Shown piece by piece: positions 21,338 to 42,879 of a stretch of 44,265 nucleotides of DNA. The stretch is from a virus. Its lineage: Duplodnaviria > Caudoviricetes. Position 1 is the first letter of the stretch. Every line of letters starts with the position of its first letter. The notes beneath the pieces are model-generated. The model saw only the letters and a program-made list of their open reading frames with translations, made no database searches and was not told the DNA's origin. The position numbers were made by a program, and so were the translations under genes. Location: positions 1 to 44,265 of the IMG/VR virus record IMGVR_UViG_3300020045_007806; one strand, given 5' to 3'.

Positions 21338-21381
21338 AAAAAGGGCTACCCTCGATATTTTGAGAGTAGCCCTTTTGTTTT
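21338..21381. terminator. Bidirectional rho-independent terminator
   Basis: AAAAGGGCTAC-CCTC...GAGA-GTAGCCCTTTT with A and T tracts on either side, at the convergence of the two gene blocks. Confidence 0.85.
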
Positions 21382-21446: not shown

Positions 21447-21647
21447 CTAATTAAATCCCACATATTTTTCTCTATATTCCTTTTCAACCAGCTCCCATTT
21501 ATCAATAACCTCTTGAGAGCATTGTTTTAATGTTGGCTTAATATCCCCTAAAAGATAAGGGAGCCTCTCACTCCATGGGATTGACCAGCCATACTCGTCA
21601 TACTCCACAACTTCCCCCTTTCCCTGTATAATTACAAATTTGTTCAC
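21447..21647 (-). CDS. Hypothetical protein (start uncertain, probably a GTG near 21608)
   Basis: Fills the gap before the terminator and overlaps the end of the HNH gene. Confidence 0.5.
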   Translation of the reverse strand: MNKFVIIQGKGEVVEYDEYGWSIPWSERLPYLLGDIKPTLKQCSQEVIDKWELVEKEYREKYVGFN

Positions 21648-22155
21648 ACCATTCTAAAAACTCTGCTTCTGACATATCGTTTTTCATAGTATTAATCCGT
21701 TTATGGACCCATTGAATATTCCCAATTTCATACCCTTTAGAGCTATTAATACGATCAATTGATGCAGTTGATTTTGACCAAGCAGAGTCTTTTGAAACTA
21801 ATTTTAAAGGAATTCCTGAGTAACGACAAAACCCTTTTTGATTCTCCCACTGATCTACCAAGTCTTGTAGTGTTATAGATACACTCTTATTTCTAAAATA
21901 AAGTTTAGTGAGATACTGTTTAGAAATCCCTTCTATACCTTCCCAGAAAGAATATTTTTCTCGTTCTTTTGAGTTACAACTTTGGCATCCACTACTTCTT
22001 CCTAGCACAAGTTGACCAGCTCTCCTAATATACTCTTTGTTACAAGATGTACAAAGAACATTCCAATAATGCTCATTGATATAATGACTGTAAGAGATGA
22101 CTTTCCACTTCCCAAAGAGTTTTCCAATAGGAGCTTCTAAGTATTTATGTTTCAT
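21598..22155 (-). CDS. Free-standing HNH-type homing endonuclease
   Basis: N-terminal 'GKLFGKWKV..WNVLCTSC..GRSSGCQSC' Zn module and 'ASIDRINSSKGY..GNIQWV...N.MK' beta-beta-alpha-Me motif; ATG overlaps the RNR stop (TAATG). Confidence 0.8.
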   Translation of the reverse strand: MKHKYLEAPIGKLFGKWKVISYSHYINEHYWNVLCTSCNKEYIRRAGQLVLGRSSGCQSCNSKEREKYSFWEGIEGISKQYLTKLYFRNKSVSITLQDLVDQWENQKGFCRYSGIPLKLVSKDSAWSKSTASIDRINSSKGYEIGNIQWVHKRINTMKNDMSEAEFLEWCEQICNYTGKGGSCGV

Positions 22156-24708
22156 TATGCCCCGCAAGTTCCTCCCTTGTTCGTAATATCACAAATATCA
22201 TTCTCCTCAAAAATAACCCCTTTATGATGGAGAGCTTCTTCGTAGCTCACTTCTGTAAGGGGCTGACCTCCTCGACTTCCGTCAGGATAACAGGTGAACC
22301 CACGAAGCCTTGGAGCGTATTTGGCAAGAGTAGTTGCAAAACTCTGCACCAACCCTTTATGATTTCCTTTACTTTCCCAAGGGGGTAAATTGATTGTAGA
22401 TGAAATTGACATGTCAACGTAATCTTGTATGTCTGCTTGAAATTTGATTCTTCGTTCATAGTCATGACTTAGTTTATATGCTGTATCAATGTTTTCTGGA
22501 TTAAGCCCATATTCTTTAATTAAGGTGTCTGCTGTGGAGTCGACAACATATTCATATTTCCATCTTGTTCCATCTGTGAGATAACGGCGTTTATATGCGA
22601 CAGCGAATAGGGGCTCAATGCCAGTAGTTGTACTAGCCAAAATTCCAATTGTACCCGTGGGAGCGATCGCACGGTACGCAATAGGTTTACTGATGTATAG
22701 GTGTTCGCAGTGTTCATTTGCTGCTCGTTCGGATTCATCTTTATATACCTTTAGCCATTCATGTAATTCCTCAGTTACTTCATATTTTTGTCCTCGTTTA
22801 AGAAGCCATTCGTGGATTCCCATGAGACCCAAACCAAGCCGCCTATTTTTCTCTCTAACTTTATAGACCTTCTCATAGGGTAAGTCGGCCCGGAGAGTTC
22901 CACAAACAAGGAATTTAATTCCTAAATTAATTATATCTTTGAATTCTTCTTTAGAATTTATATTCCCTAAATTAATAGAGCCTAAGCAGCATAAATCACT
23001 ATCATCTTCACTTGTAATCTCTGTACCTGTTTTGTTACAGCTTTCGCTGGATTAGTCATCTCTGCTAATCTCCTCAAATTCCTTTGAGGCACAGACTATA
23101 TCATCATCCACAATTGTGGAGCTTCCCGTTCGGCTAAGTAGCTTGTATTGAAAGGAAGGTAGAACATAGGGAGACACATATTCCATAAACCTAGCAACGT
23201 CCTTACAACGAAGTCGAAGGAAGTAGTAATTATAGTGTCTGATAATATTCCACTCTAAATCTAGAGAATCTTTTAAAGCTTTCTTTAAGAGAAGTTGATC
23301 TCCATAAGAAAGACGTTTTAAATTCAACGTAACATTATATGAAGGATTCTTTAGTTGTTTCTTTTCATTTGGTTGCTCAATATATAAACTACCATCACAC
23401 ATATATAGAATAGCTAAAGCTTCCCAATCAAGAAGCTTCAATGCGTGGGGATCAATTCCTTTATAATGAGCCGTATAAATGCGATGGCGTAAAGTTGTAA
23501 AGAGTGGATTAGTCTTCGTTGTAATATTCAAGAGAGGTTTCCGTCCTTGTCGTTCGTCATTAACTAAACGAATAGGAGCCTCTGTAATTTCACTACAAAC
23601 ATCACTTACCCACTGAACATAGTCAGAGTTTTTCTCTAACATATTCATTACAAATCTACAATTATTGCCACTAAAATATACACCACCATCCCCCATAGTC
23701 ATGTATGAGAGAAGTTTTACAAGTTGTTTCTTATCCATAGTCGTTACACACCTCATATCGAGTTAGCACGGTATTGGCGGTTCTCGCTGTTCACCGTTTT
23801 TAGGAAAGTTATTCGAGTAGCTTTGCAGCTACAAGGCTCAATGTTACTTAAGCGTTTCGTAATGTTTCATTCTCTTTATCTCCAAAGTTAAAGCTAAACC
23901 CCGGCTCCCCAGTCATCATTGCTTGTCTACAATTCTCTAAGAAGATGGGATTTTTATCCAAAATATTAACATCCTGCATAAATCTATTTTTTGCTATTTT
24001 ACTTAACTCGGGAGAGTTTCCAACAGGATAAGATTTATAATGATGCCCCTCACCTAAAAGAGCAGCATCATCATAGTTCACTGAGATATTAGTCATATCC
24101 AAATAAGCAGGGAAATTAAAATCTTTAGCTTTAATCTCTTTCACTTGCTCTGACCAATTCTTAGAATTCATGAATAGGGGGATATCCTCATGCTTCCAAT
24201 TGAGAGAGGCATAAATAGCAGAGCGTCTGCTACCTCCCTGCATGACCGACCTCCCCACTTCATTGATAGCAGACATCAATGGGAGAGGCCCACTAGACTT
24301 GCCCCCTGTCCTTGAGAGAGCCCTTCCTGCTGGCCTCAGTATTGAATAGTCAATCCCAATCCCACCCCCTGTAGTGAGGCAATTCATTGCTCTCCATGTT
24401 ACATTTGCCCACTCTTCCCTCGAATCAAACTCTGCTTTTAGCAAAAAACAGTTGTTATAGAACTTTGCAGCCCTTCCTGCATAATAAAGATAGCGGCCTC
24501 CGGGGATGAACTGCATCTTTTTAATATACTCTACAAGCTGCTGCCTATCGCTGAGACTCAGTAATGCTCGGCTAGCTCCCCTTTCTTCTCCGCAGATATC
24601 TTCCACAACCCGTTCTGATAGAGCATCCCATGTATCGCTATTTCCTTGGGCATATTTGTTATAAAATGTCCTTTCTGCAAATGTCGTTTTAAACCTCTTG
24701 TGTTCTAT
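22155..24708 (-). CDS. nrdJ: Ribonucleotide reductase, class II (NrdJ-like), spliced: exon 1 24708-23850, exon 2 23026-22155, 576 aa
   Basis: 'PGGRYL', 'NNCFLL', 'QGGSRRSA', 'GEPGF', spliced 'NACTE', 'LGLGLMG', 'IAPTGT', 'GIEP', 'SISSTINLP'. No beta-subunit gene in the window. Confidence 0.88.
23027..23849 (-). mobile_element. Group I self-splicing intron (823 nt, probably subgroup IA)
   Basis: Exon ends in U and intron ends in G; P1 GCUU/GAGC with U-G at the splice site; P AAAACGGUGAA, Q AAUACCGUGCUAA, R GUAACGACUA, S GAUAUAGUCU; P3 CUUUCC/GGGAAG; P8, P9, P9.1 and P9.2 hairpins; splicing restores the frame. Confidence 0.93.
23052..23738 (-). CDS. Intron-encoded LAGLIDADG homing endonuclease
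   Basis: Two motifs, 'LLSYMTMGDGGV' and 'LAILYMCDGSL'; ATG at 23738 has GAGGTG upstream. Confidence 0.9.
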   Translation of the reverse strand: MDKKQLVKLLSYMTMGDGGVYFSGNNCRFVMNMLEKNSDYVQWVSDVCSEITEAPIRLVNDERQGRKPLLNITTKTNPLFTTLRHRIYTAHYKGIDPHALKLLDWEALAILYMCDGSLYIEQPNEKKQLKNPSYNVTLNLKRLSYGDQLLLKKALKDSLDLEWNIIRHYNYYFLRLRCKDVARFMEYVSPYVLPSFQYKLLSRTGSSTIVDDDIVCASKEFEEISRDD

Positions 24709-38875: not shown

Positions 38876-40162
38876 TTATCCTCTAAAGAGATTAGGGAGA
38901 TACTGTTTAACTTCAACATCATCAGCACATTCAGCACATAAACAATCTTTTTCTGATACTATACGAAACTCCTCGCTAAAATATACAGGGGAAGAACACC
39001 AGCAACAATCTTTATAAGACTCATAAAACATTGATGCTGAAATTTCTTCTCCTTTAAACCCCTTCTTCTTTTGAAGAAAGGTGCTTATATTACTTGCTCC
39101 CTTCATTCTGAATGAGTTGTAATCAAGCTTATAGAAAGCTCCAATTACTTTAGAGTATTCGGCCCCTTTAATAGCAGCTTCCCAATTATTATGCTTGATA
39201 ATCTTTTCAGATTCCGCATCGGTCTTTGTAAAAACTCTAAAGAAATGATTAGGATATTTGCTACAGGATAGTTGAACAAACTTTGCTCCATGCTCATTCA
39301 TTCCATTAGAGCAAACTGTAAAGTTTAAAATATCCTTATCAAGATTAGGGAGTTCAGCTAAAGATTTACGAGTTCCAGTAATGGGGGTGACGTTATTCTT
39401 TTTCCGATCAATCCAGCGACCACCCCCAGCCGCTTGAAAAAAATTTATCCCTCCTCCTTTTTGCTTTTGTTCAATCTTTTGTAATCGCCCTTTATCAAAA
39501 ATATCCTCCCTAAAAGGGAGTTTATAGCAATAATGATAATCCTCTACAACAGAAATAGGTTTTTCAATCTCAATCCCATTTCTTCCTAAGATGCCATAAA
39601 GCATCCATTCTTCTGATGCCCAAAAGAGTTTCTTTTTATCCTTTGAAAAAACAATGAATAAAGAACGCTCTTTATTTCTTAGAAAATTAATTGAGTCTTC
39701 TTCTTTATCGTACCAAACAAGAGCATATGCTCCATTAACCATTTCGATAGTGGGCTTTAAACCTTGTTCTTCGATATTGTGATAAAGGGCTTCACTATCT
39801 GTATCGAATCTCTGATGATTATTTAGCTCCCACTTATTTGTGAGTGTCCCATTATGAGCTCCAATAAGAGTATTGAATTCAAAGGGATGGGAATTGTTCC
39901 TATTTACTTTCCCTGTAGTAGCGTACCTATTGTGCCCGATTATGCATTTAGTAAGCCCTACGAATGCTTGTTTAAACTTGGGATACTCCATAAGAGTATA
40001 AGGATCACCCACTTGTTTAACAAGATTTATATCGTTCTTAAAATTAATAACAGCAATTCCTGTGCTGTCACTCCCTCGAATTGCATCGATTGCTAATAGT
40101 TGTTTAGCGCAATTCTCGTCTTTAATATCTAGATTCCCTGCTGCTCCTACAAGTCCGCACAT
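38876..40162 (-). CDS. Class II (Ntn) glutamine amidotransferase with C-terminal Zn finger
   Basis: 'MCGLVG', 'RGSDSTG', 'GHNRYAT', 'HPF', 'HNGTL', 'TDSE'; CCWC...CAEC tail. Confidence 0.92.
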   Translation of the reverse strand: MCGLVGAAGNLDIKDENCAKQLLAIDAIRGSDSTGIAVINFKNDINLVKQVGDPYTLMEYPKFKQAFVGLTKCIIGHNRYATTGKVNRNNSHPFEFNTLIGAHNGTLTNKWELNNHQRFDTDSEALYHNIEEQGLKPTIEMVNGAYALVWYDKEEDSINFLRNKERSLFIVFSKDKKKLFWASEEWMLYGILGRNGIEIEKPISVVEDYHYCYKLPFREDIFDKGRLQKIEQKQKGGGINFFQAAGGGRWIDRKKNNVTPITGTRKSLAELPNLDKDILNFTVCSNGMNEHGAKFVQLSCSKYPNHFFRVFTKTDAESEKIIKHNNWEAAIKGAEYSKVIGAFYKLDYNSFRMKGASNISTFLQKKKGFKGEEISASMFYESYKDCCWCSSPVYFSEEFRIVSEKDCLCAECADDVEVKQYLPNLFRG

Positions 40163-42795: not shown

Positions 42796-42879
42796 TGGTG
42801 CGAGAGACGGGAATCGAACCCGTATGCCATAAGCGAGGGATTTTAAGTCCCTTGTGTCTGCCAATTCCACCACTCTCGC
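42796..42879 (-). tRNA. tRNA-Leu (anticodon UAA)
   Basis: GCGAGAG/CTCTCGC acceptor stem, A discriminator, encoded CCA, anticodon arm AGGGA-CTTAAAA-TCCCT, variable arm, T-loop TTCGATT. Confidence 0.97.

Follow-up and report, generated by a model that had tools for sequence, protein, structure and literature searches.

In the 44,265-nt window analysed here (the whole stretch, positions 1 to 44,265 of virus record IMGVR_UViG_3300020045_007806; Duplodnaviria, Caudoviricetes), the gene for a phage ribonucleotide reductase (RNR) was followed by a free-standing nuclease gene. The nuclease gene lay about nine codons before the original end of the RNR gene, between a diverged and an ordinary copy of that end. 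The downstream copy was the ordinary allele, and the upstream copy was diverged and likely travels with the nuclease. The insertion of a nuclease that supplants the RNR gene's 3' end is real and well supported, and we infer that it moves by homing. From the sequences, it is probable that the nuclease gene is a homing element: its product would cleave alleles that are empty at this position, and the gene would be copied in together with its own, likely resistant, end. Feature coordinates are collected in Table 1.

The ordinary and the diverged RNR end

The window RNR ended in ICDITNKGGTCGA (longer form NDICDITNKGGTCGA) on the minus strand, with the stop codon ending at 22155, where the ATG of a TAATG overlap opened the nuclease open reading frame (ORF). 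The nuclease ended in ICNYTGKGGSCGV (longer form EQICNYTGKGGSCGV), with its stop at 21598. Over their last 30 nt, the two copies were identical at 19/30 positions. The duplicated part comprised about TGKGGSCGV and the stop at most, and GGSCGV and the stop in most relatives.

RNR ends were pooled from 80 loci found by protein search, 120 loci found with the tail pattern and the nuclease searches. The 216 loci that reached the RNR stop gave 186 distinct junctions, which were sorted by tblastn (11 seed ORFs) and a motif scan. Five junctions carried the nuclease family (the window and loci L001, L014, L042 and L087), two carried remnants, four carried nucleases distantly related to the family, and eight carried other nucleases or another tail-bearing ORF. 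One locus with a different RNR type (L099) was dropped, and no nuclease was found in the remaining 166, of which 161 had at least 250 nt of downstream sequence, many only about 290 nt.

The ending C-x3-G-x-GG[STH]CG was present in 156/166 nuclease-free RNRs and in 0/5 occupied by the nuclease family (Fisher's exact test, p 2.6e-6). Because the tail pattern cannot retrieve shorter C-x7-C ends, the test was repeated with the 80-locus protein-found set alone, in which 3/60 nuclease-free ends were non-canonical (p 6.8e-6). The last cysteine was preceded by threonine in all five occupied RNR ends, versus 30/161 nuclease-free ends (p 3e-4). The last nine residues of the nuclease were each the commonest or second-commonest residue at the respective position of the 161 nuclease-free ends. 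Scored against a profile of nuclease-free RNR ends, the nuclease tail reached 35.2 bits and the window's own RNR end 24.4 bits. At the DNA level, the nuclease tail was closer than the window's RNR end to 138 of the 166 empty ends, with the reverse in 11. The terminal motif GG[ST]CGx was found in 23/30 close nuclease homologues versus 1/33 distant ones. A first-pass annotation of the window had proposed that the nuclease bears an RNR-like tail, that a diverged replacement end precedes it and that it is fused in frame to the displaced original end. All three proposals were borne out: the resemblance exceeded chance, the occupied RNR ends were those that departed from the canonical form, and the last nuclease residues with their stop were an ordinary RNR end.

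The N-terminal extensions of 18 stored homologues were also back-read in the overlapping frame. Eight with long extensions yielded a terminus resembling that of the RNR (C...C-x-x-stop, whole or in its final part) and, as judged from protein without DNA, most of these ends departed from the consensus.

Empty and occupied alleles

The final 600 nt of the RNR gene were compared between occupied locus L014 and empty locus L022. Identity was 22–30 of 30 nt per bin and fell to 14/30 in the last bin; the break immediately precedes G-K-G-G, at nine codons from the end if the stop is included. The final 27 nt of the L014 nuclease matched the L022 RNR end at 25/27 positions, followed by the same terminator-like sequence, and the displaced tail of L014 read GGTCGG, as in its empty sister. 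The pair places the insertion about nine codons inside the RNR gene, so the end of the neighbouring gene was altered, in agreement with the annotated invasion of the last RNR codons. Empty-site alleles, which the annotation had expected, exist (L022 for L014 and L084 for L042).

Downstream of the displaced tail, four of the five family loci, all but the window, resumed with the DNA or gene that directly follows the RNR in empty loci (L001 and L087 with L288, L014 with L022, L042 with L084). For the 53-aa ORF that follows in the window (21447..21608), no relative was found in viral contigs and only the ORF itself in the protein collection. The annotation had predicted an empty RNR allele followed directly by a homologue of this gene; none was found in either set. 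The junctions of the window itself were therefore placed by analogy.

The replacement end was letter-identical in L014, L019 and L045, and the codons upstream of it differed among them. L019 and L045 were deletion remnants, in which most of the nuclease was gone and both tails were kept. Between L006 and L010, identity dropped from 29/30 to 16/30 in the last 30 nt; here a different HNH gene stood behind and no displaced tail was left. At L009, the nearest RNR to that of the window in quick trees (weakly supported), a 50-codon ORF with no nuclease likeness lay between two RNR tails (..GKGGSCGV and ..GGGSCGV, each followed by a stop), 154 nt past the RNR stop.

Captured ends in the wider nuclease family

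From 160 loci of the wider nuclease family, 86 non-redundant nucleases preceded by an ORF of 100 codons or more were retained, the rest being duplicates or lacking an upstream ORF, motif or stop. The nuclease end matched the end of the upstream protein in 12/86, with 1.0 expected from swapped pairs. Three of the 12 belonged to the window family, one was a tandem nuclease-like pair (L192), and the other eight followed ThyA, an RNA ligase, four other RNRs and two proteins without Pfam matches. A dUTPase case (L134) scored under the cut. The count in any frame was 15/86 (1.5 expected), with four unfused copies added after two RNRs, an RNA polymerase subunit and a DUF5662 gene; out-of-frame captured ends occurred in L109, L144 and L214. 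By locus, the end duplications of distant relatives affected ThyA (L207), RNA ligase (L160), dUTPase (L134), the RNA polymerase subunit (L144), DUF5662 (L214) and an unknown gene (L092). Since relatives duplicate the ends of such different genes, the tail is the end of whichever gene precedes the nuclease, with or without cysteines and in or out of frame. The annotation had regarded the same tail at unrelated loci as contrary evidence; relatives at other loci carried the end of their own upstream gene.

Outside the window family, 8/12 captured ends were fused in frame (p 0.02 versus one third), and fused copies may simply persist longer. Among empty loci with a GTG located 11 nt before the end of the stop, the frame beginning there stayed open for 40 codons in 42/98, versus 12/63 of those without a GTG at that place (p 0.002). 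The last codons of the RNR often contained the start of the next gene.

An ordinary intergenic free-standing endonuclease of the T4 type could carry an RNR-like C-terminus by chance. The match is short and glycine-rich, and most distant relatives are without a captured tail (none was found in 71/86 wider-family nucleases). Set against this are the concentration of RNR-like ends in close over distant homologues, the DNA match to empty alleles and to the sequence downstream of them, and the 12 matching ends where shuffled pairs gave 1.0. Chance resemblance is hardly credible on these grounds and is effectively refuted by the L014/L022 alignment.

Distribution over the RNR tree and other nucleases at the junction

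In a quick tree of 89 RNRs with the tails removed, occupied loci stood beside empty ones in several places. In a 33-row analysis, a single clade for the seven occupied or remnant RNRs was rejected (approximately unbiased test, p 1.7e-10), and the well-supported branches of the tree forced at least three changes of occupancy. Two unrelated nucleases (L062 and L073) showed the same layout at the same RNR site, with ends reading DITG[KH]GGSCGV and a stop. Going by their motifs, we take the former to be of the HNH-AP2 type and the latter of the Endo VII type. None of the 186 junctions, with flanks of 0.3–3 kb, held two nucleases and two displaced tails.

The RNR 3' junction looks like a nuclease hotspot. 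In L006, L061, L104, L108, L170, L222, L267, L297 and L335, the RNR was immediately followed by nuclease-like ORFs of at least four additional kinds, and four of these nine RNR ends were non-canonical. In L267 and L335, the downstream flank ended before a tail could show. Four nuclease-free RNRs (L252, L303, L359 and L363) ended in N-[RKH]-GG-S-CGV, an element-type front joined to an ordinary back; such alleles may be scars of element loss by recombination between the tails. A far shorter RNR tail, ENID..C..GVCG[IL] and stop (C-x4-C), was found in L072, L081, L082 and L167, scattered over the tree and with no nuclease behind.

The layout might also stem from a single illegitimate event, an insertion or duplication at the end of the gene, that was passed on by vertical descent, was frequently lost and no longer homes. 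Such a history would be consistent with the deletion remnants L019 and L045, with the four N-[RKH]-GG-S-CGV ends, as a pop-out between tails would leave them, and with the low occupancy. Among the 80 protein-found RNR loci, three belonged to the nuclease family (L014 and L042 among them) and two were the remnants, L001 having come from another search. We consider it unlikely, as the occupied RNRs were non-monophyletic, unrelated nucleases reached the same junction, displaced tails followed the local host (GGTCGG in both L014 and empty L022) and the active-site residues were invariant in 31 nuclease members at 40–77% identity. A homing element is the reading that we prefer.

Nuclease family and fold

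The nuclease ORF matched endonuclease and HNH families of PHROG (best E 1.8e-21), had no match in Pfam and retrieved nothing in a PDB sequence search. Its AlphaFold model had a mean pLDDT of 86.6, with a terminal helix at residues 163–177 and low confidence only at residues 180–185. With this model, Foldseek gave no match at E ≤ 0.001; it listed HNH-type chains, with PacI third at a weak E of 0.011. In a wide fold search of 48,161 chains, PacI ranked first, level with unrelated rows, at Z 5.8 and an rmsd of 6.4 Å across 98 residues. The HNH-type label of the annotation thus agrees with the PHROG families and a weak fold match, and is without a Pfam counterpart.

Residues D134, R135, Y142 and N155 were invariant in the 31 aligned family members. 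All 63 nuclease homologues had the DR...Y pattern, and none had the DH variant. The family has D-R at the position of D-H in HNH enzymes and no catalytic histidine. A His-to-Tyr exchange has been described for PacI and its mostly viral group 20 (PMC5714182). The lack of a catalytic histidine and the invariant loop tyrosine (D134-R135...G141-Y142...N155) are shared with these PacI-like His-Me finger nucleases (PDB 3m7k, 3ldy), Y142 being matched to the tyrosine of PacI by pattern. By this analogy, the nuclease would be an active PacI-like enzyme. In contrast, identity to PacI was 16–17%, the N-terminal domains were unlike, and PacI is a restriction enzyme, for which a homing role is not described in the available text of PMC5714182.

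Among GenBank phages, all relatives of the nuclease had <60% identity. A metagenome scan and a genome scan returned no close member of the family, and an N-terminal alignment scan returned only the three close loci already known and three weak matches.

The tail cysteines

In class I and monomeric class II RNRs, the sites that accept electrons from redoxins are cysteine pairs in a flexible C-terminal tail (PMC5704485), so the premise from which the annotation started was right. It had read the IC-x8-CG end of the nuclease as a duplicate of this redox tail. The TGKGGSCGV part did come from the RNR end, whereas 'IC' fell in columns of the nuclease family. In the 31-sequence alignment, column 173 was I or V in 30 sequences, and column 174 was cysteine only in the window protein (V 11, A 7, S 5, T 4). 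The IC-NY stretch is assigned to the nuclease helix because P0003, the closest homologue, has WCEQVTNYVDKGGTCGV in that register. Scores against RNR ends were negative for the two residues that separate IC from TG.

The captured tail could nevertheless be functional, as the annotation had suggested, with a second C-x8-C pair acting in trans as a reductant of the RNR or rendering the nuclease sensitive to redox state. C174-x8-C183 of the window nuclease stands in the exact register of the redoxin-accepting RNR pair, and the ATT TGT codons are identical in both window copies, as a longer conversion tract in this one lineage might leave them. C183 was kept in 24/31 aligned members and could also pair with the family's own C170 (29/31). 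Against such a role, C174 is private to the window protein and lies within a predicted helix, with low confidence confined to residues 180–185. The C170–C183 spacing varied widely, and a terminal C-x8-C was present in 2/30 close homologues, in the second by way of the nuclease's own helix cysteine. The tail was lost or mutated in 7/30 close homologues (GGSCEV in L001). In L062 and L073, the capture runs from D-I-T on and starts after the first cysteine, and cysteine-free ends (ThyA, RNA ligase) as well as the out-of-frame ends of L109, L144 and L214 were captured likewise. A redox function is decidedly improbable on this evidence, and survival of both cysteines is not supported as a property of the element. 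The matching cysteine pair is likely a coincidence and not a second redox switch.

Proposed mechanism and points against it

In the model that we favour, the nuclease would cut the empty allele within the last dozen RNR codons. Repair would use the RNR gene as the upstream arm and the displaced tail with its stop (~27–30 nt) as the downstream arm. The recipient would acquire the end borne by the element and the nuclease gene, and its own end would become the new displaced tail. The predicted target spans D-I-[TS]-G-[KH]-G-G, since D-I-T is retained but G-K altered in the replacement, whereas the displaced copy keeps G-K and lacks D-I. The nuclease may read into the displaced end because a stop codon is supplied there and the start of the next gene is probably kept in place; a nuclease ending at the old stop of the host would preserve coupling to the GTG start of the next gene. 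The captured residues are likely passengers.

Several observations weigh against this model. The Fisher p values are optimistic because related loci count as independent, the occupied sample is small (five independent loci with DNA), and non-canonical ends also occurred in 10/166 nuclease-free RNRs. The 33 rows of the approximately unbiased test were picked after the first tree had been seen, and repeated loss also gives scattered occupancy (the trees being RNR trees only). Seven nucleases directly after the RNR were found without a displaced tail, four of them distant relatives (L104, L108, L170 and L222) and three unrelated (L006, L061 and L297). A cruder GTG control gave no excess (42/98 versus 41% off-frame openness inside the RNR), and no empty allele carrying the window's downstream ORF was found in viral contigs or the protein collection. 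The usual active-site histidine is absent, and the argument for activity draws on the likeness to PacI, for which the fold match is weak (Z 5.8).

Relation to known elements

Yeast FBA1 is invaded by WHO elements, which replace its 3' end; allele-specific cleavage was shown for them, and the downstream fragment was proposed as a homology arm (PMC7282813). A 2026 preprint treats them as a third, rarer category of homing element (bioRxiv 10.64898/2026.08.13.744650), and its available text is silent on phages save for one mention of bacteriophages. As in WHO elements, the endonuclease gene of the window was flanked by an intact host gene whose 3' end had been replaced and by a fragment of the former end, without splicing, and the target region held nonsynonymous differences. 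WHO elements are eukaryotic, encode a LAGLIDADG enzyme related to HO, replace the 3' half of the gene, leave the fragment untranslated, form clusters and have demonstrated cleavage. In contrast, the window element encodes a predicted His-Me finger nuclease with PHROG endonuclease and HNH matches at a phage RNR locus, replaces about nine codons, has the displaced end fused in frame, showed no clusters within the 0.3–3 kb flanks surveyed and is predicted to cleave its target. It is thus not a WHO element proper (LAGLIDADG, HO-related, at yeast FBA1).

In fungal mitochondria, mobile endonuclease ORFs (mORFs) produce gene hybrids at Allomyces atp6 and at Glomus atp6, atp9, cox2 and nad3 (PMC3630166). 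Their layout, which WHO elements share, matched that of the window: the endonuclease ORF stands between the intact host gene and a second copy of its 3' end, with the downstream copy matching relatives and the upstream copy diverged. The likeness to 3'-end-duplicating mitochondrial homing drawn in the first-pass annotation was therefore apt. The mORFs are organellar, encode LAGLIDADG or GIY-YIG enzymes and duplicate tens to hundreds of nt, whereas about 30 nt were duplicated in the window, with amino-acid changes beside the cysteine-pair tail.

The free-standing seg and mob endonuclease genes of T4 are intergenic, with cut sites hundreds to thousands of bp away, and undergo intronless homing (PMC2988022). 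With these and the homing endonuclease genes of ICP1 (PMC10448857), the window element shares a promoter-less phage nuclease gene beside an essential gene such as RNR, outside any intron or intein. It differs in its insertion inside the last codons, which become duplicated; the comparison of L014 with L022 places it within the gene and with the end of its neighbour changed. The available text of the T4 review (PMC2988022) does not mention duplication, and that of the ICP1 study (PMC10448857) contains nothing on gene-end duplication by such nucleases. Literature searches found no phage description of 3'-end-replacing elements, though most subscription papers lay outside their coverage.

Opinion is evenly balanced on a broader proposal, that a widespread phage counterpart of WHO exists. 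It would consist of small homing nucleases of several folds, many of the PacI-like tyrosine type, that invade the last codons of essential genes (RNRs, ThyA, RNA ligase, RNA polymerase) through a ~30-nt arm. An arms race with the target would diversify the redox tail of the RNR, giving N-[RK] and C-x7-C alleles, and resistant scars would remain after pop-outs. If true, the WHO-type category would extend to phages, with a target of ~10 codons, natural pairs of empty and occupied alleles and three nuclease folds on one junction. It would account for the movement of a free-standing nuclease among phages with differing downstream genes, give PacI-like tyrosine nucleases a homing role and point to selfish nucleases as a force that shapes the electron-shuttle tail of an enzyme at the sequence level. 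For annotators, enzyme-like C-termini on phage nucleases would be footprints and not domains.

Genome setting and other features

The phage contig, identical with the virus record, is 90% complete and contains genes for terminase, an SU10-type portal, PolA and a primase-helicase. The nearest annotated record to the window RNR was the adenosylcobalamin-dependent reductase of Roseobacter phage CRP-3 (66% identity). The group I intron in the RNR gene and its LAGLIDADG ORF are an element separate from the 3'-end nuclease.

Table 1. Features of the RNR and nuclease region (window positions).
Feature	Position	Strand	Remarks
53-aa ORF	21447..21608	-	GTG start inside displaced tail (TGT GG), 11 nt before end of nuclease stop
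Free-standing nuclease ORF, 185 aa	21598..22155	-	N-terminal beta domain with CxxC...CxxC; C-terminal beta-beta-alpha-metal (His-Me finger) domain
Displaced ordinary RNR end, TGKGGSCGV and stop; last nuclease residues in frame and its stop	21598..21627	-	Core GGSCGV and stop (21618-21598) common to most relatives
'IC' (I173, C174)	21634..21639	-	In predicted terminal helix 163-177 of the nuclease; Cys private to window protein
Replacement RNR 3' end, TNKGGTCGA and stop, likely element-borne	22155..22184	-	Upstream boundary inferred from related pairs
RNR exon 2, class II type	22155..23026	-	Keeps terminal C-x8-C pair
Group I intron, 823 nt, inside RNR gene	23027..23849	-	RF00028, E 2.4e-4, below gathering score
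LAGLIDADG ORF within RNR intron	23756-23052	-	
RNR exon 1	23850..24708	-	Likely start an ATA codon, 7 nt after AAGGAG

The intron interrupts the RNR in the codon following ETLRNA, and splicing would give back ETLRNAC-TEITSEDD. Related introns were seen in L009 and L025. Before 24606, the window RNR has no ATG, GTG or TTG start; the candidate ATA at 24706-24708 (minus strand) would yield a 576-aa RNR, in line with the starts of relatives. In L020, L046 and L063, the gene after the RNR seems also to begin with ATA, where L073 and L080 have ATG. An inverted repeat at 21338-21376, flanked by A and T runs and located between converging transcription units, resembles by eye a two-way terminator. Additionally, the window carries a class II glutamine amidotransferase gene at 38876-40162 and one tRNA gene at 42799-42879, both on the minus strand.

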